IMG/VR virus record: IMGVR_UViG_3300021494_000019
Span: 1-60,270 of that record
Source of the DNA: a virus
Taxonomy: Duplodnaviria; Caudoviricetes
DNA: 60,270 nt
Direction: 5' to 3' (one strand)
The notes under the pieces are model-generated. The model made no database searches. It saw only the letters and a program-made list of their open reading frames with translations, and had not been told where the DNA came from. Both the position numbers and the translations under genes were made by a program. The first letter of the stretch is position 1, and the number at the start of each line of letters is the position of its first letter. Positions 3,247-60,221 of this stretch are shown here, piece by piece.

Positions 3247-3270
3247 ACTATTTCGTTTTGACGAAATTAC
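3247..3270. promoter_or_regulatory. Degenerate copy of GTAATTTCG-N6-CGAAATTAC palindrome
   Basis: ACTATTTCG-TTTTGA-CGAAATTAC. Confidence 0.6.
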
Positions 3271-3271
3271 C

Positions 3272-3328
3272 AACATGTTTTTCATAGAGCTCAGATAGAC
3301 GCTATCTGAGTTCTGTGATAAACATGTT
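3272..3328 (+). other. Long intergenic hairpin (possible RNase III-type processing site)
   Basis: ~27-bp stem AACATGTTT.TCATAGAGCTCAGATAG / CTATCTGAGTTCTGTGA.AAACATGTT, no U-tract. Confidence 0.55.
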
Positions 3329-3366
3329 AATTAAGCATTAACCAAAAGACAGGAGGAAGTAAAAAC

Positions 3367-3798
3367 ATGCCACGAAAAAGGAGTCCTGCTTTTAAAGTAG
3401 TTGACAAAGAAACACGTAGAGGAACTAATCTGGCCCTTTGGAAGCGAAGAAGCGATAAGAAAGATATTGAATATCTTTTAAAGCTTTATGCAGATTTCTT
3501 CCCTGCGTATCTAAAAGATACGATAGTTCAGAAATTACCGAGAACAAAAGGTCTGTTCTTTTTTAAAGACATCTACTACGCCAAACGATTAATTCGGCGA
3601 TGTCACTTACCAGAAGATTCCCTAATGATTATCAAGGTTCAGCCCATCGGTAAAATAACACAGCCTAAGAAAATACTCAGTGGAATTGGTAGCTACGCCT
3701 ATGCTCTTCCTGCTTATTATCAAGGAATGACTTTAATGGATGAAGTTGCTCCGCCTAAAGGAACCTATGTTTGTAATTCTCTTAAAGTTTTAGAATAG
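3367..3798 (+). CDS. hypothetical protein, paralog family A copy 1
   Basis: Shares KVV..R.GTN, FP.Y.K, GLF.F, IIKV.P and VC..L.VLE with 3814 and 7281. Confidence 0.85.
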   Translation: MPRKRSPAFKVVDKETRRGTNLALWKRRSDKKDIEYLLKLYADFFPAYLKDTIVQKLPRTKGLFFFKDIYYAKRLIRRCHLPEDSLMIIKVQPIGKITQPKKILSGIGSYAYALPAYYQGMTLMDEVAPPKGTYVCNSLKVLE

Positions 3799-3813
3799 GA
3801 GGAAATAGCTACC

Positions 3814-4251
3814 ATGGCAGAAATTCCAGATATCGCCTACAAAGTCGTGCGTAAATGGAAAAGATACGGAACCAACTTAACTATTTACGAAAGCCTGGCA
3901 AGCAAACAGGCACAAGTTAAAAAACTACTAAAAGAACATAGTAACCTTTTCCCGACTTATCACAAAGGAGCTACAGTACATAAAGCTTCTGAAACCGAAG
4001 GTCTGTTTGTCTTTTTAGAAAAAAGACACGCAGAAGAATTTATAGAATGGGAGTTGCCCCATCTTCGTGTAAAAATCATCAAGGTAAAACCTCTATCTAA
4101 AGTACGTAAGCCTAAAAAGGTCTGCAGTCATAACGGAAACATACTGCACCAGTTAGTAAACTGGTATAAACATGCAGACCTTCACACCTTAAATATTAGC
4201 AATGCTCCTTATGGTAGCTATGTCTGCGACTCCCTTCTTGTTTTAGAATAG
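3814..4251 (+). CDS. hypothetical protein, paralog family A copy 2
   Basis: Same motifs; AGGAGG SD. Confidence 0.85.
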   Translation: MAEIPDIAYKVVRKWKRYGTNLTIYESLASKQAQVKKLLKEHSNLFPTYHKGATVHKASETEGLFVFLEKRHAEEFIEWELPHLRVKIIKVKPLSKVRKPKKVCSHNGNILHQLVNWYKHADLHTLNISNAPYGSYVCDSLLVLE

Positions 4252-4262
4252 GAGATTAGATT

Positions 4263-4529
4263 ATGGTGATTATCAAAAATCATCAAACTGACGAAGCGGT
4301 CATGCTCCTGGGAGTCTGGGCGAATGATGTTGCCTCTCCCAGGAAGCTATATTTTTATGGCCATGTCGAAAGATTCCCCAAAAAGCTGATAGATAACTCA
4401 TCTTTAAAACCAATAGGTCGAGGATACTCTATCAGCCTTTTAACTAAACAACATAGAGATTGGGCCATCGTAAATATGAAAACATGGAAAGCAACTTCTC
4501 AAGACAATAAACGCAGAGTTTATGTTTAG
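4263..4529 (+). CDS. hypothetical protein
   Basis: SD, operon context. Confidence 0.7.
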   Translation: MVIIKNHQTDEAVMLLGVWANDVASPRKLYFYGHVERFPKKLIDNSSLKPIGRGYSISLLTKQHRDWAIVNMKTWKATSQDNKRRVYV

Positions 4530-4540
4530 GAGGCTAAAAA

Positions 4541-4792
4541 ATGTCAGAAAAATTATTAGGCTATAACTTTCCACAAAAGCCCAGGTATGTTTGGCCTTGC
4601 ATGAAATGTAAATATCTATTTACAGTCGAGGCAGTTTTTAAAAATCATATAGACTATACAGATGTTTACGAATCCTGCACGATAGGCTATATATTCGTAA
4701 ACTCTGAAGAACCAGGCGATTATCATTCAAGTGTAACTATGAAACTTTTAGCTGCAACATATGTAGCTAAGATGAAAAACTTCAAAACGTGA
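4541..4792 (+). CDS. hypothetical protein
   Basis: AGGAGG SD. Confidence 0.7.
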   Translation: MSEKLLGYNFPQKPRYVWPCMKCKYLFTVEAVFKNHIDYTDVYESCTIGYIFVNSEEPGDYHSSVTMKLLAATYVAKMKNFKT

Positions 4793-4802
4793 GGTTTCTC
4801 CT

Positions 4803-5672
4803 ATGACAACAAAAGAATGGTATACTTATGAAGGCTCAAAAAGAGCTGGAATAATGTTAGCTGTTCCATTCGAGCAGAAAAGAATGGAACGATGGAATCC
4901 CCCATATCTGGTTCAACCAAAGCTTGATGGCGAACGCTGTCGAGCGGTTATAACGGATAACAACCCCATTCTCTACACAAGCGAAGTCAACGAATTCGTA
5001 AGCGTGCCGCATATTAACATGGAACTAAAATCTTATAACCTTGGCGACATCGAACTCGATGGCGAGCTATATGTTCACGGCATGGATTTTAACGATATAC
5101 ATAGCATCGTATCACGGACGACTAACCTACATCCAGACTTTGAAGACATAGAATATCACATATTCGATATCGTATCTGACAAACCTCAGCTACAGAGATT
5201 ACTAGACCTGCAATCTCTAAAGGAGTACATCGGTTATTCAGACAATATTAAGATAGTGGACTGTTATCTAATAGACACTTTCGATGAACTCATGCAGCTC
5301 TACAACCAATTTCGCCAATTAGGTTATGAGGGTTTCATCATCCGAAACGTTGACATGCCCTATGTTCGCAAGCGGCTGTCGAATTATATGATGAAATACA
5401 AACCTAAAAAGAGAGATATCTATCCAATAATCTCCTGGAAAGAAGAAAAAGATAAATATGGCAGTCCTAAAGGCCGCATGGGCGCCTTAGTCTGCACCAG
5501 CGATGAAGGTACTGTGTTCAGTGTAGGATCAGGAATGACAGACGAAGACAGAAACTATCTTTGGAAAATCCGAGATAGCCTACCCGGTAAGAGAGTTTTA
5601 GTATCCTATCAACACGTCTTTCCAAAAACTAAAGCACCACGCTTTGGTACATTTTTAAAAATTATGCCTTAG
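4803..5672 (+). CDS. lig: ATP-dependent DNA ligase
   Basis: Motif I KLDGER, LDGELY, FDI, EGFIIR, K-x-K, C-terminal OB fold (VGSG...PRF). Confidence 0.93.
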   Translation: MTTKEWYTYEGSKRAGIMLAVPFEQKRMERWNPPYLVQPKLDGERCRAVITDNNPILYTSEVNEFVSVPHINMELKSYNLGDIELDGELYVHGMDFNDIHSIVSRTTNLHPDFEDIEYHIFDIVSDKPQLQRLLDLQSLKEYIGYSDNIKIVDCYLIDTFDELMQLYNQFRQLGYEGFIIRNVDMPYVRKRLSNYMMKYKPKKRDIYPIISWKEEKDKYGSPKGRMGALVCTSDEGTVFSVGSGMTDEDRNYLWKIRDSLPGKRVLVSYQHVFPKTKAPRFGTFLKIMP

Positions 5673-5684
5673 AGGAGATTAGCT

Positions 5685-5957
5685 ATGGCTAAAGTGATAA
5701 AGCTTCAAACGATTACGCTTGAACAAAGAGAACTTGTTCAAAAAGTAGAAAAAGCTATAAGAGAAGAAAGACAAATCTTAAAAAATCTAAGAGATAAACT
5801 AACAGAACTCGATGATGAATCTGCTACAGACTTCGCAAACGAAGTCTACACGCTTTTGGTAATTAGAAGATGCTGTCTTCTCATGAAGGTCGCTAAGCAT
5901 CTCAACTACATGGGCACCGTAAGATTATATGAACATTTAATTAGTATGTTTGATTAA
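5685..5957 (+). CDS. hypothetical coiled-coil protein
   Basis: AGGAG SD. Confidence 0.7.
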   Translation: MAKVIKLQTITLEQRELVQKVEKAIREERQILKNLRDKLTELDDESATDFANEVYTLLVIRRCCLLMKVAKHLNYMGTVRLYEHLISMFD

Positions 5958-5968
5958 GGAGGCTAAAA

Positions 5969-6607
5969 ATGACTCCTGCAAAAGACCTTTTCAAGACAAT
6001 GTTTCGGGCTGAGGAAGTTTTATCTTGGCCGATAGATCCAAAGTCCAAATACTATCACAAACCCGATTCAGACTTTCAAATCTTTATCGGAAGTCCACAT
6101 CTTATTAAAGAGAATGTTTGGCTCGGTGATAGAGTTTTTATCGGTCCAAGCACTCTTATCAACAGCAACGTAGTAATTCAAAAAGATGTTTTTATCGGCC
6201 CTTATACAACAATCGAATCTAACATCACTATCGAAAAATATGCACGTATTGGTTCTTTTTGCCGCATAGCAGCCAATAGTCTAATTGGCCGTGATGCTCG
6301 GGTAGAAAACAGCGTAATACTAGGGCGCAATTTCACTTTAGCTCCTGAGAAAGACATACCAAGCGGAATTCTGTTAGATAGTAATCTCAAGCTACAATGC
6401 TCTCTGCCGGTGATTTACGGATCAAAGCACGCTGTCTATTGGCGTAGCAAAACAAGATTGGCGATAGGCTGTGATGCCTATCCTATTGACTTTTGGCTTG
6501 AAAAGTATAGAAAGATGGGAGAGATCGCTGGCTATAGCGAAAAGGAGATAGAGGAATATTATGAGTACATAAAGTTAATGATAAAACTTGGTCAACCATT
6601 CAACTAA
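5969..6607 (+). CDS. hexapeptide-repeat (left-handed beta-helix) protein, copy 1
   Basis: Repeated [LIV]-G-x-x-x-x hexapeptides; C-terminal IGC...W...EY domain. Confidence 0.85.
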   Translation: MTPAKDLFKTMFRAEEVLSWPIDPKSKYYHKPDSDFQIFIGSPHLIKENVWLGDRVFIGPSTLINSNVVIQKDVFIGPYTTIESNITIEKYARIGSFCRIAANSLIGRDARVENSVILGRNFTLAPEKDIPSGILLDSNLKLQCSLPVIYGSKHAVYWRSKTRLAIGCDAYPIDFWLEKYRKMGEIAGYSEKEIEEYYEYIKLMIKLGQPFN

Positions 6608-6624
6608 CTTTAAGGAGGATTTAA

Positions 6625-7263
6625 ATGTCCTTAACAAAAGTTCTATCACGACCTAAATATCCACTGGAAGAAGTCCTATCTTGGCCAATCGATCCAGAAG
6701 ACAAATATTATCATGAACCAGGCACGGATGTAAAAATTTTCATAGGCAATCCAAAGCTAATAGGTAAAAATGTTTTTCTTGGTGATCGTGTCAAAATAGG
6801 CCATAGAACAGAAATAGACGATAATGTTTGGATACAATCCAAAGCAAGTATTGGTTCAAAAACATATATCGGAACGCATTCTACAATAGGAGAATATGTT
6901 CGCATCGGTGATTTATGTTTCTTGTCTCGAAATACAACTATTGAAAATCTTGCTACAGTAAGTTCAAGAGTTTATTTAGGACCACATTTCACACTCGCTT
7001 CAGAGCAAATTGTAGAGCCTAACGTTGATTTGGCTGGTTATCAAAAGATGGTTCGTTCTATGCCCATAATTCGAGGCTCTCAACACGAAGTATTTTGGTA
7101 TGATAAACGGATGTTGACGATAGGCTGCATTCGCTTATCCATAGAAGATTGGCTACAAAAATACGAAGAGCTGGGCAAAAAACACAAATACACTGAAGTG
7201 CAGATACAAGAATATCTTAGCTACATAAAAGCCATGAAAAGCATTGGTCCTCCATTCAAATAA
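6625..7263 (+). CDS. hexapeptide-repeat protein, copy 2
   Basis: Same length (212 aa); shares EEVLSWPIDP, KYYH, LGDRV, IGC and GxPF with 5969. Confidence 0.85.
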   Translation: MSLTKVLSRPKYPLEEVLSWPIDPEDKYYHEPGTDVKIFIGNPKLIGKNVFLGDRVKIGHRTEIDDNVWIQSKASIGSKTYIGTHSTIGEYVRIGDLCFLSRNTTIENLATVSSRVYLGPHFTLASEQIVEPNVDLAGYQKMVRSMPIIRGSQHEVFWYDKRMLTIGCIRLSIEDWLQKYEELGKKHKYTEVQIQEYLSYIKAMKSIGPPFK

Positions 7264-7280
7264 CTAAAAGGAGATTTGAC

Positions 7281-7700
7281 ATGGAAAAGATTGTCTATAA
7301 AGTAGTCGATCCAAAAACCCGTTATGGAACTAATGTTATCTTGGCAAAAAGAAACTGCGATGGTTATACTCTTCAAAGATTGCTAAACGCTTATCCTGAA
7401 TACTTTCCGCAGTATCACAAAGAAGTCATCGTTGAGAAAGCTCCTGAAACTGAAGGATTATTTGTTTTTCCTGAAAAAGAACATGCAGAAAACTTCGTCT
7501 TTGCTGAACTTCACGATTTACCTGTTAAAATTATCAGAGTGCAACCCTTAGCTGAACTAAAACAACCTAAAAAAGTTTTTGCTCAATTTGGAGCAAGACC
7601 ATGGGAACTTCCTCGCATGCGTAATTTTCGCAATCTATTAGTTCTCAGATCCGCTCCTGCCGGATCAAAAGTTTGCAACAAACTAAAAGTTCTTGAATAG
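7281..7700 (+). CDS. hypothetical protein, paralog family A copy 3
   Basis: Same motifs as 3367/3814. Confidence 0.85.
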   Translation: MEKIVYKVVDPKTRYGTNVILAKRNCDGYTLQRLLNAYPEYFPQYHKEVIVEKAPETEGLFVFPEKEHAENFVFAELHDLPVKIIRVQPLAELKQPKKVFAQFGARPWELPRMRNFRNLLVLRSAPAGSKVCNKLKVLE

Positions 7701-7712
7701 GAGGTTTAAACT

Positions 7713-7910
7713 ATGACAAAAAGAACAGAAGAACTTATTTTTAATGCCGAGAAGAAACACAGCATTCGCTATGATGCCAAGTCTCCCCACGACGACGAAA
7801 CCTGCATTAAAAGCATTTACATCACTCGCTCCGGCCTGAAAGCCTTAACTAAAACTACGTCTTACCCAGGCACACTAAAACTTACTATTGAGTTTGACGA
7901 TCTTGGCTAA
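7713..7910 (+). CDS. hypothetical protein
   Basis: AGGAGGT SD. Confidence 0.75.
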   Translation: MTKRTEELIFNAEKKHSIRYDAKSPHDDETCIKSIYITRSGLKALTKTTSYPGTLKLTIEFDDLG

Positions 7911-7921
7911 AGGAGACGCTT

Positions 7922-8410
7922 ATGCTTAATGCAAAAATTTTTGAAGAAAGAGTTTCCGCTGCACAAAGACAATATGAGCAAAGACTCAAAGAGATAGAAA
8001 ATGAAGAGCGTATTTTGAGTATTCTAAAAACCTTACCATTTATCGACTCTCCTGAAATCGAAGTTTATGTTTACTTCTACGGTTGGCGTGTTGTTATTGA
8101 TGTTTCAAAATCTCGAGAAGCAGAAGATAAGATTTTAGATATTGCTGATGTAATTGAACAAATTGCAGGGCCGCTTCATAGAGAATTAAACATCGACTGG
8201 AAACTCTTGCCTGAAGGTTCTGGATTAGTTTCCCTTCTGTCTGATAACTTTTCTGATTGGCAAGATATTAAGATACGAATCAACCTGGATCAACGAGACC
8301 AAAATGTCTGTCACATTGAGAAAAAACTTATCAGGCAAAAAACTGATGAAGAACTCGAAAGAGAAAGATGTGAATATCAATTCTTTATAAAATGTGACGA
8401 AGCTGCTTAG
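7922..8410 (+). CDS. hypothetical protein
   Basis: AGGAG SD. Confidence 0.75.
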   Translation: MLNAKIFEERVSAAQRQYEQRLKEIENEERILSILKTLPFIDSPEIEVYVYFYGWRVVIDVSKSREAEDKILDIADVIEQIAGPLHRELNIDWKLLPEGSGLVSLLSDNFSDWQDIKIRINLDQRDQNVCHIEKKLIRQKTDEELERERCEYQFFIKCDEAA

Positions 8411-8420
8411 TAATTTAGCT

Positions 8421-8519
8421 TCCTGCCGCTGAGGTATCAAAAATAAAACATGCGAGAGTAAGGTCAATCTAACAAAAGACAATGCTGGGCTTCTCAGTAT
8501 TGTCGCCTTGGCGGCAGGA
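8421..8519 (+). other. Intergenic structured element
   Basis: 15-bp stem TCCTGCCGCTGAGGT/GCCTTGGCGGCAGGA enclosing an A-rich strand and hairpin GACAATGCTGGG/TCAGTATTGTC. Confidence 0.5.
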
Positions 8520-8542
8520 TTTTAGAAAGGAGAAAATAAGGC

Positions 8543-8836
8543 ATGTCGAATGATATTTATACGGAAGAAATACACATTAAGCGTTTAAAAAAGATGCTTA
8601 AATTAAACGACATAAGAGCTCACTGTCCAGCAGCTCCATATTTTGATAGCGGTAGAGATGCTAATACTTTATGGCAAGGCTCAACCATAGAAGAAGTCTG
8701 CGATATTTGTAGAAGTTTCATAAGTCTCGATTCCGCATCAGGTCTTTTATGCCCTTGCCTCGTATTAGGCGAAGAAAAGGCCAAAGAACTTACCCTATTA
8801 AGACTCAAGGAGATAGACAATGCTCAGAAGATTTGA
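8543..8836 (+). CDS. Cys-rich hypothetical protein
   Basis: HCP, CDIC, CPC motifs. Confidence 0.7.
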   Translation: MSNDIYTEEIHIKRLKKMLKLNDIRAHCPAAPYFDSGRDANTLWQGSTIEEVCDICRSFISLDSASGLLCPCLVLGEEKAKELTLLRLKEIDNAQKI

Positions 8837-9191
8837 AATAACATTAGAACTTCCCAAAGATATGACTCTCGAACAGATGAAATCATATCTAACTAACTGT
8901 CTCTGTAACGAAAACACAGTACCAAGTCGCCATTTTGACAAAACTAAGGTTGTTGTTAAGAGTATACCGTTGCCTAAATCTATGTTTCCCCAAAATCAAT
9001 GGATAAAGATTCTATCTTCTAAGAAGCCAGGAATGTATATCGACGTTCATAAAGCAAAAACTCTGGCATCAATACGCCGTGCCGCCAGAAAGTTGAATAT
9101 GCTAATAACAACAAAGCCTATGATTATTGACAACCAAAAACTAACCCGTGTATTTATTCTCATGGAGGCCGGAAGTTATCATGAAAAATAA
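8820..9191 (+). CDS. hypothetical protein
   Basis: AGGAG SD. Confidence 0.7.
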   Translation: MLRRFEITLELPKDMTLEQMKSYLTNCLCNENTVPSRHFDKTKVVVKSIPLPKSMFPQNQWIKILSSKKPGMYIDVHKAKTLASIRRAARKLNMLITTKPMIIDNQKLTRVFILMEAGSYHEK

Positions 9192-11265
9192 CTGGAAAAG
9201 TTTTGAACAGTATCTTATAGAGTCTCGATACTCTATAAAAGATTCTGAAAATCAACCCATTGAACATAGTTATCAAGATGTCATAAAACGTGTCGTGGAC
9301 TATTTGCAATGTGAACAAGTTCTATCGCAACTACCCGACAATCTAACCGACAGTGCGGTAATAGACAAAATATCCGAACTTCTCCTAAGCCGAAGAATAA
9401 TTCCCGCTACACCTGTTCTAATGCACTTTGGAGCCCCATCTCGCCGAAAAACCTACTTTAGTTGTTATCCGCTCGGCTACGTAGAAGACAGCATCGAAGA
9501 CATAATGTCCACTGCAAGACGAATGGCCATCATTTTTCGCTCAGGCGGAGGTGTTGGTATCGATCTTTCAAAACTTCGATCTAAAGGAAGTCTGGTATCT
9601 AACGGCCAAGGCATCGCTTCTGGCCCGACAGCCTTTTTGAATGTTTTTGATGGCGTAACTCAAGCCATTAGTCAAGGAGGACGTAGGCGAGGAGCGCTAA
9701 TGGTAACATTAGATGCCAGACATCCCGATTTAGAATCCTTCGTCAAGGCGAAACTGAACGGCGATTTTAAGAACATGAATATCTCCATAATCGTAAATTC
9801 GCTAAGTATGCTTAACAAAGATCAATGGAAAATGGTAGCGGAAGCGATTCATGCCTGTGGCGATCCAGGCGTTATGTTTCTTGATAACGTCTACCAAAAC
9901 ACACCGATTCCAGCGGAACTCGAACCCCGACATAGCAATCCTTGTGCAGAGTATTTAAACATCGCCAATACGGCTTGTAGCTTGATTCATCTAAACATTC
10001 CACTACTCAACAACAAAAAGGAAAATTATGTTTTGGAGAATATTCACGATGCTGCTTACCACGCATGTCTTTTCCAAAACATTTTGTCTTTCTTAGACGG
10101 CTACCCCGATAAGCAAGTTGAAATAACATCAAAACTCTACCGTCCGATTGGTGTTGGTATGACAGGCTTTCACGAATTTTTAATCGATCGCAAGATTCAA
10201 TATGATTCTCAACAAGCCATCGAATGGGCAGAAAAGATTCAAGCAACCATCGTCTGTGGTTCAATGTTGGCGAGTGCTCGAATGCAGAAAACTTTAAAGA
10301 CGACAGCAATTCCATGCAGAAGAGAATGGATGTTACATTTCCTCGATCAACTTGAAAACTGCGTAAAAGATTTAGCTAATTCGTGTGAATCTATACGCAC
10401 CGTATTAAACGATTACGGTAGCCTTTACAACATTACTACTACAACCCAGGCTCCGACTGGTTCGATATCGCAACTAATTCATCGTTTTTCTACGGGCATC
10501 GAACCAATCTTCGCTTTGAAGCAAAAACGTAAGTTTGTTTATCAAGATCAACTCAAAGAGGTTGTTTTGGAATATCCAACATCTTCAGACTTCATTCCTC
10601 ACACAGCTCATGAAATCTCTCCTGATTGGCATATTAAGATAACTTCAGCTATTCAGAAGTTCTGCCATACAGGAGTCAGTAAAACGATTAACTTGGCCGA
10701 AGATACCACAACTTCCGAGATTGTTGACCTAATCGAATATGCTCACGATAACAACTTAAAGGCCATTTCGTTCTATCGAGATAAATCTAAGGCAATCCAG
10801 ATATTAGAAAATGCAGAAAAACAACCTATCGAAACCCTTCCTTCTAAACGTCCCGCAGAAGTTTATGAAATATCGGGACCTCGAACCTGCTATGTGATAA
10901 TAACCTACGTTAATGGTCAGATTCGAGAAACCTTCATAAATACTGGCAAAGGAGGGTCTGCGTTAAATGCAGCAGGTGAGGCATTAGGACGAGTTCTATC
11001 TGTCGGCCTAAGAGCATATCCTTCTCTCCGAGAGGCATTTGCTAATGCTTTAAAAAACATCGATTCAGGAGATGTTTATGTTTTGGACAAACGCAGATAT
11101 AAATCACTATTCGATGCAATTGGTCACATTCTATCTAAATCGTCTGAAGATATTGACCAAATCATTATCGCCAACGGCGACCTTTGTCCAAGCTGCGGCA
11201 AAATGACTCTTAAGAGAGAAGGCGGATGTAAAACTTGTCAGTTATGCGGGTATTCGACATGTTAA
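9181..11265 (+). CDS. nrdJ: class II (B12-dependent) ribonucleotide reductase
   Basis: SCY, GGGVG, QGGRRRGA, NPCAE, TTQAPTGSIS; C-terminal TSCPD-like region with CPSCG...EGGC..C..CGYSTC; no beta subunit gene. Confidence 0.92.
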   Translation: MKNNWKSFEQYLIESRYSIKDSENQPIEHSYQDVIKRVVDYLQCEQVLSQLPDNLTDSAVIDKISELLLSRRIIPATPVLMHFGAPSRRKTYFSCYPLGYVEDSIEDIMSTARRMAIIFRSGGGVGIDLSKLRSKGSLVSNGQGIASGPTAFLNVFDGVTQAISQGGRRRGALMVTLDARHPDLESFVKAKLNGDFKNMNISIIVNSLSMLNKDQWKMVAEAIHACGDPGVMFLDNVYQNTPIPAELEPRHSNPCAEYLNIANTACSLIHLNIPLLNNKKENYVLENIHDAAYHACLFQNILSFLDGYPDKQVEITSKLYRPIGVGMTGFHEFLIDRKIQYDSQQAIEWAEKIQATIVCGSMLASARMQKTLKTTAIPCRREWMLHFLDQLENCVKDLANSCESIRTVLNDYGSLYNITTTTQAPTGSISQLIHRFSTGIEPIFALKQKRKFVYQDQLKEVVLEYPTSSDFIPHTAHEISPDWHIKITSAIQKFCHTGVSKTINLAEDTTTSEIVDLIEYAHDNNLKAISFYRDKSKAIQILENAEKQPIETLPSKRPAEVYEISGPRTCYVIITYVNGQIRETFINTGKGGSALNAAGEALGRVLSVGLRAYPSLREAFANALKNIDSGDVYVLDKRRYKSLFDAIGHILSKSSEDIDQIIIANGDLCPSCGKMTLKREGGCKTCQLCGYSTC

Positions 11266-11663
11266 ATAACATCGATAACTTATCCGACAATGAGGCTCGT
11301 GAAATTTTAGCCTTACTACGAGCAACTAAACGTCGCAAGAAGAAAACATCGCAAAAAGAAAACACCATGCCTACTAAGGTATGGGCGGCAACCAGTAAAC
11401 AACCAAAGGCAGTATTAACGCAGTCATTCACTGACATTGCTAAATTTTTTATAGGCGATATCGTACCGGATATTGAGAATCGGTCAACACCAAGCATCAA
11501 AGCCATTGTAGTCGAAATTTTGGAAATGTTGGCAGAAACATCACCCAGCCAAGCCAAGAATCTTCGACACAAGGCTGCAAAGTTTGTCTTAATAAATGAA
11601 CGTGAAAAGCTAATTGCAGCTATTTGTTCATTTGCGGCAAACTTATCTATGAATATTTTGTAA
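11259..11663 (+). CDS. hypothetical protein
   Basis: Operon context; start uncertain. Confidence 0.6.
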   Translation: MLNNIDNLSDNEAREILALLRATKRRKKKTSQKENTMPTKVWAATSKQPKAVLTQSFTDIAKFFIGDIVPDIENRSTPSIKAIVVEILEMLAETSPSQAKNLRHKAAKFVLINEREKLIAAICSFAANLSMNIL

Positions 11664-11683
11664 TTTCGGCGTGGCGAAATTAC
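11660..11683. promoter_or_regulatory. GTAATTTCG-N6-CGAAATTAC palindrome
   Basis: Perfect arms, spacer GCGTGG. Confidence 0.8.
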
Positions 11684-11778
11684 GGAGATGAAAGGAGGGT
11701 AGCATTAATTCCACGATTCATTTAAATCTCCTTTGGAGATAAATTAAAAAATGCTTCACAAAAATAGGAGGAAAAATT

Positions 11779-12054
11779 ATGAAGCAAGTTGAAAAAGAAG
11801 TTCGCCATAAAGGAAACGTCATCGGTAAAGTTCAGATTCCTGTTTACGAAACCATCGCCGAAGCTACTAAGGCTATGGGAGAAAAAGATGCTCTGGCCAA
11901 AATTAACAGGCAGACTGCTCAGGATATTATGAACGATTATCGTGCTTCTGCTACCAGAGAAGTTTCCGAACTTACTATTTTGAAACGGATGGCGAAGAGC
12001 GATCCCAAAGTTGCCGAGGAAATCGCTCGCCTCGTGAAAAAGTTCAAGAGCTAA
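11779..12054 (+). CDS. hypothetical protein, homolog of 58002-58376
   Basis: EA.K..GEKDA.A..N and DY.AS....VSE shared; AGGAGG SD. Confidence 0.8.
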   Translation: MKQVEKEVRHKGNVIGKVQIPVYETIAEATKAMGEKDALAKINRQTAQDIMNDYRASATREVSELTILKRMAKSDPKVAEEIARLVKKFKS

Positions 12055-12071
12055 TTAGTTCATCTTAACTT

Positions 12072-12104
12072 GGCGAGGAGTCTTTTCGGCTCCTCGCCCT
12101 TTTT
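12072..12104 (+). terminator. Rho-independent terminator
   Basis: GGCGAGGAGTC/GGCTCCTCGCC stem followed by T5. Confidence 0.65.
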
Positions 12105-12114
12105 AGGAGAATTT

Positions 12115-12345
12115 ATGGACTATCTAATAAGAAACCTTCCGGATGATTTACATCGCACCTGGAAAAGTTTGTCAGCTATGAAGGGCGTAACTATGCAAGA
12201 TTATGTTCTCATGGCTTTAATGACCAGAATAAAAGAAGACCTGGGAGGACAGAATGTTGAAGAAAGTCTCAGAGATGACAACAGAGGAACTAAAGGAACA
12301 TCTAAGAAAACTGCGAGAGAAAAGAAAAACGGGATACAGCCCTAA
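12115..12345 (+). CDS. ribbon-helix-helix (Arc/FitA-like) DNA-binding protein
   Basis: YLIRNLPDDLH..WK..SA.KG.TMQDYV pattern. Confidence 0.75.
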   Translation: MDYLIRNLPDDLHRTWKSLSAMKGVTMQDYVLMALMTRIKEDLGGQNVEESLRDDNRGTKGTSKKTAREKKNGIQP

Positions 12346-12430
12346 GCCGAGAAAGAGAAACGATGGAATGTTCGGTGATATTCCTCCAGAACTTGCCGCT
12401 AAAATTCTTGCAGAGTTGAAGAAGTCATAA
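12254..12430 (+). CDS. small basic protein (58 aa, not in ORF track)
   Basis: GGAGG SD; MLKKVSEMTTEELKEHLRKLRE...PELAAKILAELKKS. Confidence 0.65.
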   Translation: MLKKVSEMTTEELKEHLRKLREKRKTGYSPKPRKRNDGMFGDIPPELAAKILAELKKS

Positions 12431-12553
12431 TGAGCTTACTTTTCTGGGAAATATTGATCGTGTTAATTCTTATCGCTATTAATTGTATAGGAAATCCTAA
12501 TGACTAAAACGTGAGGAGATGGACGAACATCTCCTCACTTAATAAGGAGAATT

Positions 12554-13441
12554 ATGGCAGAATACTATTCCTACTCCAAAATTCGAGATTTTGCTTTTTG
12601 CCCAAGGCTGTATAAATGGCGATATGTCGAGGGCTATCGTCCCCTAAAAAAGGCTAAAGCTCTTGCATTAGGTAGCTGTATGGCCGCCGGAGTAGCAGCT
12701 TTTCGCAAAAATGGCAATACCGAACATTCCATTATTGATGAACAGAATCCTGAAAACACCAAACTATCGCCAATCGATGCCTTTCTCGAAACATGGAAAA
12801 GTCAAGGTCAAAGTTTGGAATTTAGTAAAGATGAAGACCCTCTCAGATCTGTCGAGCGTGGTCTGGAGATTTTAGAAGCCTATATGAATGAATATCCAGA
12901 AGAACCTGAATTAGTCGTAAAGCCTGAAATTTGGTTCGAAGAAGAAATTGCTCCAGATATCTTCTTCCGGGGCAGAGTTGATGGAATTATGAGAGACGAA
13001 AATGATGTTTTCCTTATCGAAGATAAAACAGTATCTTGGCTTGGCCCTCAATGGTTTCGAGCACAAAAAGACTCTTATCAAATACTTTGGTACATGTTCA
13101 TCTGCAAAAAGCTCGGTTTGTTTGAGCTTTTTCGAGAGAAGGAGAGGCCAAGATGTTTAGTTAATGCCATCTACATAAATCCTACTCGATTCCGTTTCGA
13201 GCGTGAGATGACCATGAAATCAAATAAGGTCATCGACGATTCTCTCAATAAGATGTTAGAATGGGTAGAAATGATAAGATTCGCCACTAACAACGATGTT
13301 TTCCCCAAAGCAGATGGAGATAAATGTCAGGCTTATGGAGGCTGTGAGTACCTTCCTCTGAAGAATGCTCATGGCGAAATGCTCCAGCGTTTGCTTATGG
13401 GAGGATTTACTAAAGAACATGAAAGAGAGGTGGTTATATGA
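12554..13441 (+). CDS. PD-(D/E)XK exonuclease (RecB/Cas4-like)
   Basis: SYS...CPR, GRVDG, IEDKT, Q..WY, C-terminal C....GC.Y. Confidence 0.85.
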   Translation: MAEYYSYSKIRDFAFCPRLYKWRYVEGYRPLKKAKALALGSCMAAGVAAFRKNGNTEHSIIDEQNPENTKLSPIDAFLETWKSQGQSLEFSKDEDPLRSVERGLEILEAYMNEYPEEPELVVKPEIWFEEEIAPDIFFRGRVDGIMRDENDVFLIEDKTVSWLGPQWFRAQKDSYQILWYMFICKKLGLFELFREKERPRCLVNAIYINPTRFRFEREMTMKSNKVIDDSLNKMLEWVEMIRFATNNDVFPKADGDKCQAYGGCEYLPLKNAHGEMLQRLLMGGFTKEHEREVVI

Positions 13442-48364: not shown

Positions 48365-48365
48365 C

Positions 48366-52448: not shown

Positions 52449-52661
52449 TCATCTCTCGCCAAACTTTTGTACTGCCTTAGCACCAAAAATCACACCAAGA
52501 AGCGCAACGTTGGTGTTGCTGAAAGTGGTCATAGCGTTATTTCTAAGGCTAATATAAGTCCAAACGAACATAACGGGAATTAGAACGATTAACTGCATGA
52601 TTCGCATACACGACCAATCACCATTGGCTTCTTTTAGAAAACTTAGAAAATTTTTAAGCAT
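52449..52661 (-). CDS. putative 2-TM holin
   Basis: S..R motif, two hydrophobic helices, K..QKF.E tail. Confidence 0.65.
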   Translation of the reverse strand: MLKNFLSFLKEANGDWSCMRIMQLIVLIPVMFVWTYISLRNNAMTTFSNTNVALLGVIFGAKAVQKFGER

Positions 52662-52678: not shown

Positions 52679-52702
52679 GTAATTTCGTCACTGCGAAATT
52701 AT
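52679..52702. promoter_or_regulatory. GTAATTTCG-N6-CGAAATTAC palindrome
   Basis: GTAATTTCG-TCACTG-CGAAATTAT at the portal stop. Confidence 0.78.
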
Positions 52703-53922: not shown

Positions 53923-56454
53923 TTATGAATGTAAAACGCTCCAACGAGCGTTATTAGACGGAGTTTTTAGCCTGGGTTTGTCCATATTCCAAATACTGCT
54001 CCTGTTTAGGTTGCTATTAGCGTTGGAAAAATGAATCGAGGGCGTGGTGCCTTTAGCATCTTTGCAATATTCGTCATCGAGAAAAGCGTACATCATTGCA
54101 TCAAGATGGTCAGGAGATTGGCCCATGCCTTGTTTAGACTCAATGAGAATCTTTCCGTTGCGTAAAATATAATGCAAATTCCCAAGTTCAGCAATTAGTT
54201 GTTGAGGAATGTTTTTGCAGTATACGTGAGGCAAGATAGTTCTTAGGTTCCAATATCCAAGAGCACGTAAGTTTGCGATGGTATCTTTATGTTTATCTGG
54301 AACCTTAGCCTGACCTAAGACTGGCTTGACAATCTTAGGAAAAAGACGTTTAAGATTGTCATAAACTCCTGCTCCGATTCCATTAGCGTCAACCTTCACT
54401 GAAGTTGGATTGAAGGATTGAACAAATTCAGTTACCCAGTTGGTAATATCTACCGTATCGCCTATGCTGCCGCTTAGTGGAAATTCTTCAAAACCTAAAA
54501 CTTTATAGCCTTTTCGGATGCATAATATAGTTTTATTAATACTGCGAGCAATATCTAATCCGAATTCGATTGGTATGCGTTTGCCTCGATCATCATAAAG
54601 CTCAGGCCCATTATTGCGAAACTTTTCGATGTCGTCGGGAGTGAATAAGAGCATAGACGAATCCATCTTCGGAAAGTTGCCCATGACTTTTATTTGATAG
54701 ATTGGATGATCCTCGCCATAGGTGGCCAGCATGGTTTTCAAATAACGCTCTTCGACAAAAGGAGAATTTCGGCTATCGACGTGAAAAAGTCTATAAAGAC
54801 CTTTCATCATAGGATTATTAAACACGTCGTAGAAATATCCGGAAATTTTGGTCGGATTGCTTGTCAAAATACAATAAGCCTTCTTTCCTGTTAAGGCTCC
54901 TTCTATGGCGGGGAAGATTGCATCGGGGACACCTGAAGCTTCGTCGACGATGAACATAAGGTTTTCCTCTGAATTACCGGACCACATACAAAAGCCGTTT
55001 CTACGTGTAAAAATTAGATGATAAGGAGCGACATCTACACAATAAACTTTTCCTTTGTATGGAACTTGATACAAATTCTCCCGTCTAATAGTGAGGTAAG
55101 CCTTATTATCTACATATTCAGCTACTCTATAACGAACATGCTTTGTTTGTACTAATCTTCCTCGAATATAACTGGGTTTTTTCTGGTTCTGTTCGGGAGT
55201 ATATTTTCTAACGGACGCCTTTCCTCCAACCTTAAAAATTAGCTCTTGAATATCATCCGCTAATTTTTTGGAAGATGTGTAATAAATCTTTATGCCTTTT
55301 CTATTAATATAACCATCTCCATGCAAATAACCATTCAAAAATCTTCTAATGAGTTCAGGAGAGGCATCTTTAACATACTGAGGTACGAACTTATTTAAAG
55401 ACGATGTTCCGAATTCTTCTAAATGATGCTTAAGTTGTGGAGAGTTGATATCGATACGATCCGCTCCAAAATCTTCGTTAGCATAAGTATGTGCTACAAA
55501 ACCAAGTTGATTCGCAAGATATTCTATTAAAGGAAAAACAGCTTCATCTTTTTGACTAAGACTAATTCCGTAAGGAGTACAATATCCTTCGGCAAGATAA
55601 AAACCTAAGAAGTAAAACCATGAAGGTGCAGATGTAGTAACTTTAGGATATTTTTTCTGTTTACCTTGATAAGCGGGGATATCGAAAGTCGAGAAATCTT
55701 TACCTTTCCAGATGAAAGTATTATTTATGTACCAATGACGGTATGTTATATTCTGAATTTCATCCAACTTCCAATCAGTAAGTTTTCCATGACTTTTATT
55801 TTTGTACAACATCTTATGATTAGGCGTAACACAAAAATCTAAATTTTGATGTTTAGTTGTGTACATCATACCGTCATAATCATATTCCATTATCTTAGAA
55901 GGTCGATAATATGAAGCCTCTCCAGTATCAGGGTTTAAAGAGAGTACTTTGTCATCAGATTGCAATTCGTAAAAATACTTCCATCCTTTGTGGGTTAGTA
56001 TCTCAGTGTCTTGGCTCATGCAGTGAAATCCCTGAAGTCCTTCCGCAACCTGACCCGTTGGTGATACTCTGGCCGTTCGAGCTACGGCATACCAATCAGG
56101 AGCGTACTTAGTTACGGCGACTCTGGTTCCTGTCCAGGTCAATAGCTGAGACAAAAATTCGCTTTCTCGAATATTACGATGGTGGGAAGCCCATAAAATA
56201 TCAAATAGCTGATGTTGACTTGGAGCAGTTGTCGGAATGCGACAGAAGGGCTTCGTGCAGAGAAACCAACATGTAACGTCACTCAACCAGAAAGATTTAC
56301 CGACTCCGGAACCGGCTCGGATGGCGACGAAGTGATCTTCGACCAAGGCCTTAAATGCTTCCGATTGCCATTTGTCGTATTTATGACCTAAGATATCCTC
56401 ACCAAAAGCTTCTGGATTGCTTTCGTAAAACTGCAAGGCTTCTTTCGAGAGCAT
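53923..56454 (-). CDS. terL: terminase large subunit containing an intein
   Basis: GSGVGKS, TAP..HQ, IVDEASG, SNP, G.DIAR, SPD..DA. Confidence 0.92.
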   Translation of the reverse strand: MLSKEALQFYESNPEAFGEDILGHKYDKWQSEAFKALVEDHFVAIRAGSGVGKSFWLSDVTCWFLCTKPFCRIPTTAPSQHQLFDILWASHHRNIRESEFLSQLLTWTGTRVAVTKYAPDWYAVARTARVSPTGQVAEGLQGFHCMSQDTEILTHKGWKYFYELQSDDKVLSLNPDTGEASYYRPSKIMEYDYDGMMYTTKHQNLDFCVTPNHKMLYKNKSHGKLTDWKLDEIQNITYRHWYINNTFIWKGKDFSTFDIPAYQGKQKKYPKVTTSAPSWFYFLGFYLAEGYCTPYGISLSQKDEAVFPLIEYLANQLGFVAHTYANEDFGADRIDINSPQLKHHLEEFGTSSLNKFVPQYVKDASPELIRRFLNGYLHGDGYINRKGIKIYYTSSKKLADDIQELIFKVGGKASVRKYTPEQNQKKPSYIRGRLVQTKHVRYRVAEYVDNKAYLTIRRENLYQVPYKGKVYCVDVAPYHLIFTRRNGFCMWSGNSEENLMFIVDEASGVPDAIFPAIEGALTGKKAYCILTSNPTKISGYFYDVFNNPMMKGLYRLFHVDSRNSPFVEERYLKTMLATYGEDHPIYQIKVMGNFPKMDSSMLLFTPDDIEKFRNNGPELYDDRGKRIPIEFGLDIARSINKTILCIRKGYKVLGFEEFPLSGSIGDTVDITNWVTEFVQSFNPTSVKVDANGIGAGVYDNLKRLFPKIVKPVLGQAKVPDKHKDTIANLRALGYWNLRTILPHVYCKNIPQQLIAELGNLHYILRNGKILIESKQGMGQSPDHLDAMMYAFLDDEYCKDAKGTTPSIHFSNANSNLNRSSIWNMDKPRLKTPSNNARWSVLHS
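54973..56022 (-). mobile_element. Intein with LAGLIDADG homing endonuclease (350 aa)
   Basis: GFH|CMSQDTEILT...VTPNH...FLGFYLAEG...FLNGYLHGDG...VYC...SGN|S. Confidence 0.92.
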
Positions 56455-57076: not shown

Positions 57077-57105
57077 AGAATAACACACTTCTTATTTTTT
57101 GTCAA
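57077..57105 (-). promoter_or_regulatory. sigma70-type promoter for the morphogenesis operon
   Basis: TTGACA-17 bp-TATTCT with TG. Confidence 0.7.
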
Positions 57106-58001: not shown

Positions 58002-58376
58002 TTATGCTAAGGCTTTGCGTATGACACGCTGCCTTAACGATTCCTTAGACTTGCGAACCCTGAGCAAATCCTCAGGTTTGCCATAGCCTAAGGCCTGTAA
58101 GGTTGAGATTTCAACCTTGGATAACTTGCCTTGTGACCATTTTTTGGCAAGTTTTCTCTTTTCTGAAACTTGAAGCTCACGGCTTGCCTTATAATCTTCA
58201 GCCGCAAGGTCACGACTGAATTTTTTTAAGGCTTCATTTAACACCGCTATAGCATCTTTTTCACCTAAAATTTTGACAGCTTCAGAAACGCTGTCAAATT
58301 CCGGATACCGATAGTTTCCTACAGGTATCCTTTTACGGTTTTCAGTGATCGAAAATTTTTCAGTTAGCTTCTTCAT
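58002..58376 (-). CDS. basic hypothetical protein, homolog of 11779-12054
   Basis: AGGAG SD; shared GEKDA and DY.AS...VSE. Confidence 0.8.
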   Translation of the reverse strand: MKKLTEKFSITENRKRIPVGNYRYPEFDSVSEAVKILGEKDAIAVLNEALKKFSRDLAAEDYKASRELQVSEKRKLAKKWSQGKLSKVEISTLQALGYGKPEDLLRVRKSKESLRQRVIRKALA

Positions 58377-58441: not shown

Positions 58442-58469
58442 ACTATATCACATATAATCAAGATGTCAA
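58442..58469 (-). promoter_or_regulatory. sigma70-type promoter
   Basis: TTGACA-16 bp-TATAGT with TG. Confidence 0.6.
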
Positions 58470-58562: not shown

Positions 58563-58825
58563 TTGGCCTAAGATGTGTTATAGCAATTAACGTACCAAGA
58601 CAGATAAGTCACTTTGGCAAGAGTATTGCTATATCAATTATCATACCAAGATAGCTTATCTTACTTGGCAAGGTTATTGCAATAGCATAACTTAGGCCAA
58701 CTTATGTTGGCAAGAGTATTGCATAAGCAAATAGTATGCCATAGGACTTGGCATGATGTTTGCATAAGCATAAGATGTGCCATAACCTTTTGGCAAGGTT
58801 ATTGCATATGCATAAGGCGTGCCAG
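58563..58825. repeat. Array of six ~36-bp quasi-palindromes, each two head-to-head sigma54-type elements
   Basis: TTGGCA-N6-TTGC-N4-GCA-N7-TGCCA pattern; 10 of 12 half-sites keep GG-N10-GC. Confidence 0.82.
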
Positions 58826-58829
58826 TTAG

Positions 58830-58977
58830 CTTATTTAACTAATTTATGTTATTTAACTTATTCATACCAGCCGGACAAGATTTAACTTATTTAGCTAATT
58901 TATGTTATTTAACTAATTTAACTTATTTAACCTATTTAACGAATTTAACCTATTTAACTTATTTAACTTATTTAACT
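58830..58977. repeat. AT-rich ~9-bp tandem repeat (TATTTAACY)
   Basis: Direct inspection. Confidence 0.85.
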
Positions 58978-58994
58978 CTCAAACGTAAACCTCC

Positions 58995-59290
58995 CTGTCG
59001 CATCCTGTCGTGGCCAGAATGCCGGCGTGTCGCATGAGTCGTGGCCATCCTGTCGGGTGTCGCATAGCGAATGGCCAGAATGCCGAATAGTCACTTAGAA
59101 TGTCGCCATGATGCCTTCGAGTCGCTTAGAAGGTCGTATCCTGGCTCGATGTCGCCATGGATAGGGTCAGAATGGCCAACTGTCGCACAGCGAGTGATCA
59201 TCTAATCAAGCCATCCTGTCGTGGCATCATGGCACTGTCGCCTGGCCAAAGGCCATCGTGGCTAAAGGCCATCTTAGGAGTGTCGCATAG
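58995..59290 (+). repeat. Cluster of same-orientation (T)GTCG(C) motifs
   Basis: More than 10 copies on the + strand interspersed with TGGCCA. Confidence 0.7.
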
Positions 59291-59495
59291 TAGGATTGAT
59301 AATGGTTGTGTGATATATTATCAACTCGGCCCCTTGGCAAGGTCTAAAATAGGTTACGAAGTGTTTTGAAAAACGTTCAATAACGGGCCAAATCGCCACC
59401 TGGCAAGGCCACGGAAAACGACCCTATATAATGGTACTGGCCCCAGGCCAGAATGGCCTTAGAATTGATAACATATCATATCAATCTAACTTCCC

Positions 59496-59519
59496 ATAAT
59501 TTCGCCGTGACGAAATAGC
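59496..59519. promoter_or_regulatory. GTAATTTCG-N6-CGAAATTAC palindrome (degenerate)
   Basis: ATAATTTCG-CCGTGA-CGAAATAGC. Confidence 0.7.
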
Positions 59520-59544
59520 CATGCGGCTAAAGCCGCCAAGGCTA

Positions 59545-59695
59545 ATGGCCATCATGCCTTTCCAGACTACCCAGGCATCATGCCAAGACAGGTGTTAACG
59601 GCATCATGCCACTTCTGTCGACCCGTGGCCAGGTGGCCGTAGCATCATGCCCTTCCAGGTCGCTAAAGGCATTCTGGTCTCGGCCATCATGCCTA
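59545..59695. repeat. Cluster of CATCATGCC motifs
   Basis: 5 copies, some as the GGCATCATGCC quasi-palindrome. Confidence 0.7.
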
Positions 59696-59996
59696 TTTTG
59701 TCGGTCAGGACAGGATGGCTCCTGTCGGATACCATCTTTTGCGGGTTTTAGTGAACATATGTTCAAAATAAGTTATTGAAATTATTGACAGTTTTAAAAT
59801 TTCCTAACAATTTCGGCCACTTACCAATTACGCAAAATTACACACTTCTTGAAAATTGTAAGATGGCTAAAATAGCCTAAAAATAGACCCTTCCTGGGTA
59901 AGAATTTGCCGATGATCTACCCTCTTTTCCTGCTCGCCAGAGTTCTGAAGTTAGATGGTATGATGGCATGATGGTATTTTAAAAGGTTTTGTAGTG

Positions 59997-60179
59997 ATTT
60001 CAATAGGTTATCAATTCTACAAGTTGTGTAGAATTCTGGCGGTGTAGGTACTTGAAATTATTAGTCTTTTTTTCGGCCCGAAAACCCAAGTCAAATTTGC
60101 TAATAATTTCAACCACTTTTCAATTCCACAGAATTCTACGGGCCGGGCGGCTGGAAAAAGTGCCGGAATTACGGAAGAT
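59997..60179. repeat. Right arm of degenerate gapless inverted repeat (partner 20-202)
   Basis: See left arm. Confidence 0.85.
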
Positions 60180-60197
60180 AGAGAAAGCGACATCTCG

Positions 60198-60221
60198 GTA
60201 ATTTCGCCACGGCGAAAAAGC
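60198..60221. promoter_or_regulatory. GTAATTTCG-N6-CGAAATTAC palindrome (degenerate)
   Basis: GTAATTTCG-CCACGG-CGAAAAAGC. Confidence 0.65.

Follow-up and report, generated by a model that had tools for sequence, protein, structure and literature searches.

Palindromic sites at the module junctions of an uncultured siphophage: a putative phage-private operator and its candidate readers

The DNA stretch analysed here (the window; 60,270 bases) is a whole virus record, IMGVR_UViG_3300021494_000019, linear and with a CheckV value of 100%, and it represents a complete non-temperate siphophage. It carries nine copies of a gapped palindrome, GTAATTTCG-N6-CGAAATTAC, at the junctions between its gene modules. 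We explain these sites as a phage-private palindromic operator, that is, a double-stranded site which would be recognised by a dimeric, phage-encoded reader and would co-evolve with it; in our estimate this explanation has about an even chance of being correct. A dimeric, sequence-specific phage protein would read the palindrome as two half-sites, and one such protein could occupy every module boundary, like the KorB/OB network of RK2 or the palindromes of Cluster O mycobacteriophages. The bound protein might modulate expression of the block that follows, or use the site as an entry point into the genome.

The palindrome is present in exact form at 11660, 27647 and 40312, with 0.00 occurrences expected from 100 dinucleotide shuffles. 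When up to three mismatches were allowed, nine sites and no others were found (expected 0.07; largest shuffle count 1), and the core AATTTCG-N6-CGAAATT with up to two mismatches returned the identical nine sites (expected 0.80). These are the nine positions listed in an earlier sequence-only reading of this DNA, all of which were correct. The 9-mer half-site occurs 11 times when the strands are collapsed and, as judged by reading the site sequences, all 11 occurrences lie inside the nine sites; thus there are no stray half-sites. From each site to the next the distances are 8413, 4124, 11863, 12665, 7159, 5208, 6817 and 702 bases, so that the spacing of mostly 4–13 kb described before holds (4124–12665, plus the one interval of 702). 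The placement at gene junctions holds as well: by our own gene calls, of the 20 non-coding gaps that measure 25 nt or more, 8 hold one site each, and the ninth site (47471) runs over the final ~10 codons of an open reading frame (ORF) upstream of it. Several of the site-bearing gaps are only 37–38 nt long, just enough for the motif and a ribosome-binding site. Sites are spaced more evenly than expected at random in a related Desulfofustis phage (P=0.0014; see below) and marginally so in the phage of the window (P=0.06). A central GT had been noted in eight of the nine spacers; this count stands if the orientation of each site is chosen freely. When the spacer is read along the downstream gene, GT is found in 5, AC in 3 and neither in 1, and the GT polarity is thus independent of transcription.

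The sites head an early block (3367), a recombination block (11779), the ParB-methyltransferase/polymerase block (15826), a small post-portal gene (52661), the protease/capsid block (47459), a gene for a 178-aa protein (40286) and the lysis block (27627). Copy 1 (3247–3270), in which all 3 mismatches fall in the upstream arm, follows a strong hairpin at ~3195–3235 and lies 96 nt before the ATG of 3367–3798. Copy 2 (11660–11683, exact) overlaps the end of ORF 11235–11663 and precedes gene 11779–12054 by 95 nt; the orthologous site in relative G002 (labels G and L followed by numbers denote the relatives and other contigs compared with the phage of the window, G000) is at 7442. Copy 3 (15784–15807, 1 mismatch) overlaps the stop codon of an XRE gene, lies 18 nt before the ATG at 15826 and heads the block of ParB-methyltransferase, PolA and primase genes. 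Copy 4 (27647–27670, exact) is located between the gene for a 2516-aa tail protein and the lysis block (amidase, 27054–27494). Copy 5 (40312–40335, exact) is preceded by a terminator-like hairpin with a T-run and followed after 25 nt by the ATG of the conserved 178-aa gene (39750–40286), with orthologous sites in G002 (37478) and G007 (39182); this gene has no Pfam family and from its position we read it as the major tail gene. Copy 6 (47471–47494, 1 mismatch) lies 11 nt before the ATG of a prohead protease-like gene (46842–47459). Copy 7 (52679–52702, 1 mismatch) overlaps the stop codon of the portal gene; the ATG of 52449–52661 follows 17 nt later, and the orthologous site in G004 comes directly after the G004 portal gene.

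Copies 8 (59496–59519) and 9 (60198–60221), each with 3 mismatches, lie 702 bp apart in a 1.6-kb non-coding control region near the end of the record. Close site pairs of this kind are also present in non-coding regions of G001, G002, G003, G006 and G007. Other repeats are found around this pair. Between gene 58002–58376 and copy 8, the non-coding segment 58852–58975 contains at least five close copies of a ~12-nt unit (AATAAGTTAAAT-like), 9–36 nt apart; the run is iteron-like and may be a replication origin. The 11-mer TAGAATTGATA occurs with similar flanks near both record ends, at 71–81, 180–190 and 59460–59470 on the plus strand and at 60009–60019 on the minus strand. Its presence at both ends suggests that the two ends form one control region, as in a permuted or circular map, and its recurrence suggests a second operator type. 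The right end of the record (60222–60270), directly after copy 9, consists of an (ATT)n microsatellite and then a T-run.

Relatives were identified by way of the ParB-methyltransferase and the portal protein, and show ~45–65% protein identity over replication and head genes. The exact CG-type pattern of the window has no match in relatives such as G001 and G003, and the family becomes apparent only with a degenerate scan. With such a scan, G001 was found to carry 7 sites of the form GTATTTTTA-N6-TAAAAATAC, G002 9 sites of GTAAYTTTA-N6-TAAAATTAC and G003 6 sites of GTAACTTCA-N6-TGAAATTAC. The form GTAWTTTCA-N5-TGAAAWTAC is present at 6 sites in G006 and 3 sites in L060 (21 kb), 7 TA-type sites are present in G007, and 2 sites in the 6 kb of G004. 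The outer ends GTAA..TTAC are kept, the spacer is 5 or 6 bases long, and the inner bases change symmetrically (CG/CG, TA/TA, CA/TG), so that the arm pairs TTTCG/CGAAA, TTTTA/TAAAA and TTTCA/TGAAA change jointly between genomes. Some of the junctions are also shared with the phage of the window: the post-portal junction with G004, the junction before the major tail gene with G002 and G007, and that before the homologue of gene 11779, including its flanks, with G002. In the window, G002 and G007, one site directly precedes the ParB-methyltransferase gene or operon. On this comparison of genomes, the motif of the window is one variant of a family shared by descent and inherited at fixed module junctions.

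Palindromes of other sequence, in comparable places, were seen in more distant genomes that also encode the ParB-methyltransferase fusion. G005 has two junction copies of another dyad, G010 has 12 copies of TTGTTCAAA-W-TTTGAACAA, G013 has 11–12 copies of the G010-type core with flanks GAGATGG..CCATCTC, and in G011 an imperfect dyad occurs ~9 times. The deposited Desulfofustis phage MD01, whose host was inferred from CRISPR spacers (PMC10370329), carries 7 copies of a 25-bp dyad ~7 kb apart; the main text of that paper mentions neither ParB nor the dyad repeats (PMC10370329). Two portal relatives differ in their repeats. G017 (L271), a complete genome with no ParB or methyltransferase match, has 9 copies of CTGTCCAA-GG-TTGGACAC clustered in 9 kb (6482–15303), and its half-site resembles that of the Desulfofustis phage dyad. 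G014 (L268–L270), which lacks the ParB-methyltransferase, carries eight same-strand copies of a ~50-nt promoter-like direct repeat.

Searches beyond these relatives returned little. No match was obtained when 25 kb of the window was compared with deposited phages by megablast, or in a locus search seeded with the DNA polymerase. Exact-pattern scans of viral and prokaryotic genome collections gave, among the matches listed, scattered single matches unrelated to the phage, and the few multi-match contigs among them (a Patescibacteria metagenome-assembled genome, a Cloacimonadales array, a Bordetella contig and L019) show no similarity to the window. In the Patescibacteria genome (L175, L176) a ~36-nt palindrome present three times contains the 22-nt pattern by chance. 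The Cloacimonadales contig (L180) holds an array of 74-bp period in which four copies contain the 22-nt pattern; it is unrelated to the phage. There is thus no sign of a host operator among the matches listed. A sporulation-regulator box that resembles six of the nine sites in the window was dismissed, as it is absent from the TA and CA subtypes.

The symmetric change of the arms between genomes fits a DNA site and an RNA stem alike. Several other features distinguish the two. The spacer is itself a conserved palindrome, N-C-N-N-G-N, in which position 2 is C and position 5 is G (CGCG in G002 and G007), so that a hairpin would have no loop, and the dyads of G010, G013 and the Desulfofustis phage are centred on just 1 nt. 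No arm mismatch is offset by a compensating change within a genome. Among 297 arm pairs, the sense-strand mismatches comprise 12 G·T and 18 A·C, which gives no sign of a preference for wobble pairs. In the window the dyad has no T-run after it in either direction, and no Rfam match was obtained; these features are not those of an intrinsic terminator or structured RNA element. Given the palindromic centre, the mismatches left uncompensated and the missing G·U bias, we favour recognition of double-stranded DNA by a dimeric phage protein over an RNA hairpin.

The sequence-only reading had proposed a ParB fused to a DNA methyltransferase, encoded by the phage, as the protein that loads at the sites. 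The fusion is indeed present at 16041–17420 (+), and consists of a ParB N-domain with a GFRR box, a ParB-type helix-turn-helix (HTH; ~residues 126–150) and an N6/N4 DNA methyltransferase. Pfam assigns PF02195 to residues 3–87 (E=1e-7, above the cut-off) and PF01555 to residues 215–441; the HTH_ParB model gave no score at E<=0.01. The GFRR and EENxxK boxes are invariant in 4 fusion homologues, and a profile of the fusion matches solved ParB, Spo0J and Noc chains over residues 21–159, through the HTH (match ends 134–159). Two of the matched ParB chains, 6t1f and 4umk, were presumably solved with parS DNA. The C-terminal half is a beta-class N6_N4 methyltransferase, most like DpnA, CcrM, MboIIA and RsrI, and takes the place of the C-terminal dimerisation domain. 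The reported lack of ParA was borne out: a six-frame search for a ParA-type ATPase (PF13614) was empty in the window, while 14 of 14 control genomes were positive. AAA_24 was the sole P-loop protein scanned. Without ParA, a function in partition is unlikely.

Homologues of the fusion are encoded by every close motif-bearing relative examined. The turn and helix start of the HTH read L-[NSKC]-x-S-x-[AS]-T in 9 distinct variants from contigs with TA-type sites, and the 7 distinct variants that go with CA-type sites have L-G-x-[SA]-x-G-T; the corresponding sequence in the window is LGMPVST. Among viral and metagenomic homologues, HTH and motif subtype agree in every one of the 16 distinct variants that could be assigned. 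ParB-CTPase/N6_N4-methyltransferase fusions are described as frequent in phages, with a role that is only speculated upon, and the nucleotide bound by some ParB-fold fusions was ATP or GTP, not CTP (PMC12704722, in the sections consulted). A ParB-like activator of a phage DNA-modifying dioxygenase has also been described (PMC13229309, likewise). No DNA site is assigned to ParB-methyltransferase fusions in the literature searched, supplementary files aside. Among the candidate readers the fusion is, tentatively, the most likely one, though we hold it to be possible rather than probable that it reads the sites.

Several observations weigh against the operator as stated or against the fusion as its reader. 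Most TA and CA sequences fall into two clades on a tree built with the HTH masked, so that few independent events lie behind the tracking of motif subtype by the HTH; G007 branches without resolution outside the TA clade, yet has a TA-type HTH. G010 and G013 share a 15-bp core, GTTCAAA-W-TTTGAAC, and have very different ParB recognition helices. The fusion is present in G009, G012 and ctMlz233, in which no palindrome family was seen; conversely, the nine clustered palindromes of G017 stand in a fusion-free genome. The gapped 9-6-9 or 9-5-9 geometry is also unlike a contiguous ParB site. Spacing evenness is not significant in G010 (P=0.13). At the eight oriented sites in the window, the gene-side half has 0 mismatches and the far half has all 9, an asymmetry that is not seen in the relatives, where the far half has 19 and the gene-side half 16; better conservation of the gene-side half was therefore rejected as a general rule. 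A subset of sites, at 3247, 40312, G002 13771 and G007 11098, is preceded by strong hairpins, with or without a T-run. A terminator always placed upstream of the site was rejected as a rule, as the folding energy of the 55 nt upstream is like that of controls (P=0.12).

Many of the sites also lie very close to gene starts. In a survey of 49 sites from 8 genomes, in which a start was defined as an ORF of at least 45 codons, preceded by a Shine-Dalgarno (SD) sequence and within 130 nt, a downstream start was detected at 33 sites and none at 16. Of these 33 sites, 23 lie within 30 nt of the start (median 19), so that they abut the ribosome-binding site, an arrangement that also fits a promoter or an RNA element and must be set beside the other contrary points. 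In a genome so tightly packed, any 24-bp insert at a junction falls between a stop codon and the next ribosome-binding site, and the adjacency is therefore weak evidence.

Four alternatives were weighed, and the probabilities given to them overlap in part with that of the operator statement. In the first, the reader is another phage DNA-binding protein or a host factor, and the ParB-methyltransferase is unrelated to the sites; we consider this unlikely, though it survives best of the four. The first candidate is a ribbon-helix-helix (RHH) protein (12130–12345, +), FitA/ParD-like and below the Pfam cut-off. The second is a conserved 91-aa protein of unknown fold family (11779–12054, +), the first gene after copy 2, which has a paralogue at 58002–58376 (−) and no Pfam or PHROG family. 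Both are kept in the close clade, directly downstream of an orthologous site, a layout typical of autoregulation. RHH proteins bind palindromes as dimers of dimers, and the result with G010 and G013 argues that the ParB HTH need not be the reader. On the other side, the beta-strand of the RHH protein does not track the motif subtype, the strands of G007 (TA) and G003 (CA) being nearly identical, which weakly disfavours the RHH operator raised in the sequence-only reading. A tblastn search revealed no RHH or 91-aa homologue in G010, which carries palindromes (G013 and the Desulfofustis phage were not screened). A structural model of the 91-aa protein (pLDDT 87) matched no DNA-binding fold among solved structures (best E=1.9). 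An XRE-type HTH protein (15518–15787, +) had been another suggestion; it was rejected as reader because tblastn found no homologue in the motif-bearing G002 and G007. A host factor, also suggested, is unlikely because the site changes phage by phage and no multi-copy host match was found among the matches listed. Stoperator-like roadblocks are likewise disfavoured: the site is a dyad, the orientation bias is confined to the window (9 vs 0 mismatches, against 19 vs 16 in relatives), and no tyrosine integrase (PF00589) was found in a six-frame search in which the positive controls rang, serine integrases not being part of that search.

In the second alternative, to which we give a somewhat lower probability than to a different reader, the motif would be the core of a phage-specific promoter. 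Transcription would start at or just after its gene-side end, the host RNA polymerase would be redirected by an unrecognised phage factor, and each gene module would form a middle or late transcription unit of its own. A conserved element of 23–24 bp abutting the start has the geometry of a phage-polymerase promoter. The sites head modules at the median distance from the start codon given above, and several of them follow strong hairpins. The 12 nt upstream of the sites are T-rich (P=3e-6), and the gene-side half is invariant in the window. A gene-side flank of RRAGAT type is present at 12 of 30 oriented sites, compared with 4 of 30 for its mirror image. These asymmetries of half-site and flank were scored on manual orientations, from which the 19 of the 49 sites that lack a clear downstream gene were excluded; automatic and manual orientation disagreed at three sites (G000 59496, G002 7442 and G003 33459).

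The form of a host-type promoter in this phage is illustrated by the predicted sigma-70-type promoter at 641–669 (+), near-consensus with a TG-extended −10 (11/12), upstream of the first genes of the plus arm. Another near-consensus, TG-extended promoter (11/12) is predicted at 58442–58469 (−) before gene 58002–58376, and a third (TG-extended, 10/12) at 57077–57105 (−), at the head of the terminase/structural arm. At the nine sites no sigma-70-type hexamers (at least 9/12 matches) were found, in line with the earlier remark that the sites are not next to recognisable promoters. The base at the would-be −11 varies between motif subtypes, and a scan of 1–20000 for consensus promoters and terminators gave no richer yield than shuffles. 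Six-frame searches found neither sigma region 2 (PF04542) nor a single-subunit RNA polymerase (PF00940), the latter negative being weak since its control rang nowhere. A promoter would not be expected to have dyad symmetry through its centre. The proximal/distal asymmetry is not a general feature (19 vs 16 once the window is set aside), the hairpins upstream are overall no more stable than controls, and the 16 of 49 sites with no gene start detected within 130 nt also speak against it.

The third alternative places the motif in mRNA, as a hairpin 5′ of the ribosome-binding site that would serve as a processing site, a 5′/3′ stabiliser or a translational operator. We judge this to be slightly less probable than the promoter. 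The position immediately upstream of SD sequences inside operons fits it, and pairing is preserved where the arms differ between genomes. The G013 palindrome is longer, at ~33 nt (GAGATGG..CCATCTC), and makes a stable stem, and in G011 the outer arms CTCC..GGAG could sequester the SD sequence. It is opposed by the uncompensated mismatches within genomes, by the lack of a G·U over A·C excess on the sense strand (12 vs 18), by the palindromic spacer without a loop and the empty Rfam search, and by the short, AU-rich stem in the window. The paired copies in non-coding control regions without an adjacent gene start also argue against it.

The last alternative is the one favoured by the sequence-only reading. 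The palindromes would be parS-like loading sites in cis that recruit the ParB-fold/HTH/methyltransferase protein at module boundaries; there it would close as an NTP-dependent clamp, slide, and selectively methylate or coat its own genome, a self-restricted protection or marking. This we consider the least probable of the four and quite doubtful. It draws on the domain composition of the fusion, on the lack of ParA, which makes partition unlikely, on the frequency of phage fusions of this kind with no known function (PMC12704722, as cited above) and on the ParB-like dioxygenase activator (PMC13229309, likewise). The spacing of the sites, every ~4–13 kb in the window and ~7 kb with significant evenness in the Desulfofustis phage, and the tracking of motif subtype by the HTH in the close clade are also in keeping with it. 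It is disfavoured by the shared core and different recognition helices of G010 and G013, by the fusion-positive genomes without palindromes, and by the gap of 5–6 bp between the half-sites, unlike contiguous ParB sites.

Returning to the operator with a dimeric reader, its closest functional counterpart, by analogy, is the KorB/OB network of the IncP plasmids RK2/RP4, and the sites would work most like that system. There, a ParB-family protein and a short palindrome in many copies around a mobile genome serve operon control. The KorB operator is TTTAGC(C/G)GCTAAA, which the inner half-site of the TA subtype (TTTA-N-C) resembles (PMC2680271, in part), and KorB is described as both a sliding clamp and a repressor (PMC11790492 and PMC13768133, in part). 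The two systems differ in several respects. The KorB operator is a contiguous 13-bp palindrome, whereas the sites described here have 9-bp arms around a centre of 5–6 bp, with optional flanks. KorB has a C-terminal dimerisation domain and the partners KorA and IncC, whereas the fusion ends in a methyltransferase and no ParA was found. A network of this kind would have its palindrome at or near the promoters of most operons; the nine copies here lie at module junctions, and no sigma-70-type promoter was recognised at them.

In appearance the sites are, again by analogy, most like the unexplained dyads of Cluster O and the ESAS repeats of Cluster K mycobacteriophages. Phages of Cluster O (the Corndog group), apparently non-temperate, carry more than 30 copies of a 17-bp dyad for which a dimeric binder is predicted, and encode proteins with ParB-like domains; the passages describing these repeats give their function as unknown and identify no reader (PMC4351075). 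About one third of them lie within coding regions, unlinked to translation starts (PMC4351075, same passages), whereas the sites here are at gene junctions, number 6–12 per genome and are unrelated in sequence. No homologue of the ParB-HTH region was found in mycobacteriophage records. The SAS/ESAS repeats of Cluster K are described as imperfect inverted repeats with a variable spacer, just upstream of some translation starts and of unknown function, kept at orthologous genes across related phages with a consensus that differs by genome (PMC3203893, in the sections consulted). ESAS has 17-bp arms plus a separate 13-bp asymmetric element containing the ribosome-binding site, in one orientation (PMC3203893, same sections); here a single 24-bp dyad is present, with no fixed orientation in the relatives.

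Two further systems share fewer features with the sites. Canonical ParB-parS likewise combines a ParB N-domain with arginine box and HTH with palindromic sites, and in the plasmid-prophage N15 the centromere sites are dispersed through the phage genome. The phage of the window differs in having no ParA, no C-terminal dimerisation domain and a gapped site, and it is not evidently a plasmid prophage. Like the stoperators of Cluster A phages (L5, Bxb1), the sites are many copies of what would be one protein's site in short intergenic gaps genome-wide. Stoperators are asymmetric sites that point in the direction of transcription, and the phages that carry them are temperate and have an immunity repressor (PMC4351075, in part), whereas the sites here are dyads, no tyrosine integrase was found and the orientation bias is not general.

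The genome in which the sites are embedded has two arms. The early/replication arm runs rightward from ~1154 to 26164 and encodes a ligase, ribonucleotide reductase, PD-(D/E)XK nuclease, AAA_24 ATPase, DUF669 protein, the ParB-methyltransferase, a PolA with a uracil-DNA-glycosylase (UDG) domain, primase and ThyX. The structural arm runs leftward, from 26151 to ~60193, and encodes the small terminase, an intein-bearing large terminase, a Mu-type portal, protease, capsid, tape measure, the 2516-aa tail protein and an amidase. In the early arm, the family A DNA polymerase (17417–19762, +) has an N-terminal domain of the UDG superfamily, an arrangement kept in all close relatives. The ThyX (Thy1) homologue (22538–23254, +) is made up of two adjacent ORFs, 22538–22966 and 22970–23254, which match one and the same region of G003/G008; this may reflect a frameshift, a split gene or a sequencing error. 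Paralogue sets are also present in this arm (3367–4251, 7281–7700 and 5969–7263, +), namely three ~140-aa proteins without known family and two 212-aa hexapeptide-repeat transferases.

In the structural arm, the large terminase (53923–56454, −) is 843 aa long with a LAGLIDADG/HINT-like insert (intein), and relatives align across ~360–370 residues only. The 2516-aa tail protein (27703–35253, −) contains GpJ-type FNIII and Phage-tail_3 domains, two Laminin_G_3 domains and a lectin-like domain, for which the Pfam model of the clostridial neurotoxin receptor-binding N-domain gives a score; the arrangement resembles a receptor-binding module. Between the head and tail genes, 40324–42658 (−) holds a Methyltransf_23 gene and a gene for a 566-aa GT9+GT2 glycosyltransferase. 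A comparable methyltransferase/glycosyltransferase set is described in the structural region of Cluster O phages (PMC4351075, in part).

Genome-wide palindromes of unknown function are known in a few cultured phage groups, and the family described here spans many uncultured phage genomes. Its orthologous positions, symmetric half-site variants and short list of candidate readers make it directly testable by cross-binding. If the link to the ParB-methyltransferase is true, the sites would give that protein class its first cis element, and if the sliding model also holds, they would provide a mechanism for the widespread phage ParB-methyltransferase fusions, namely self-directed epigenetic marking or anti-restriction in cis. 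If the link proves false, the sites would remain markers of how gene regulation is laid out in a large group of phages of sediment and groundwater type.

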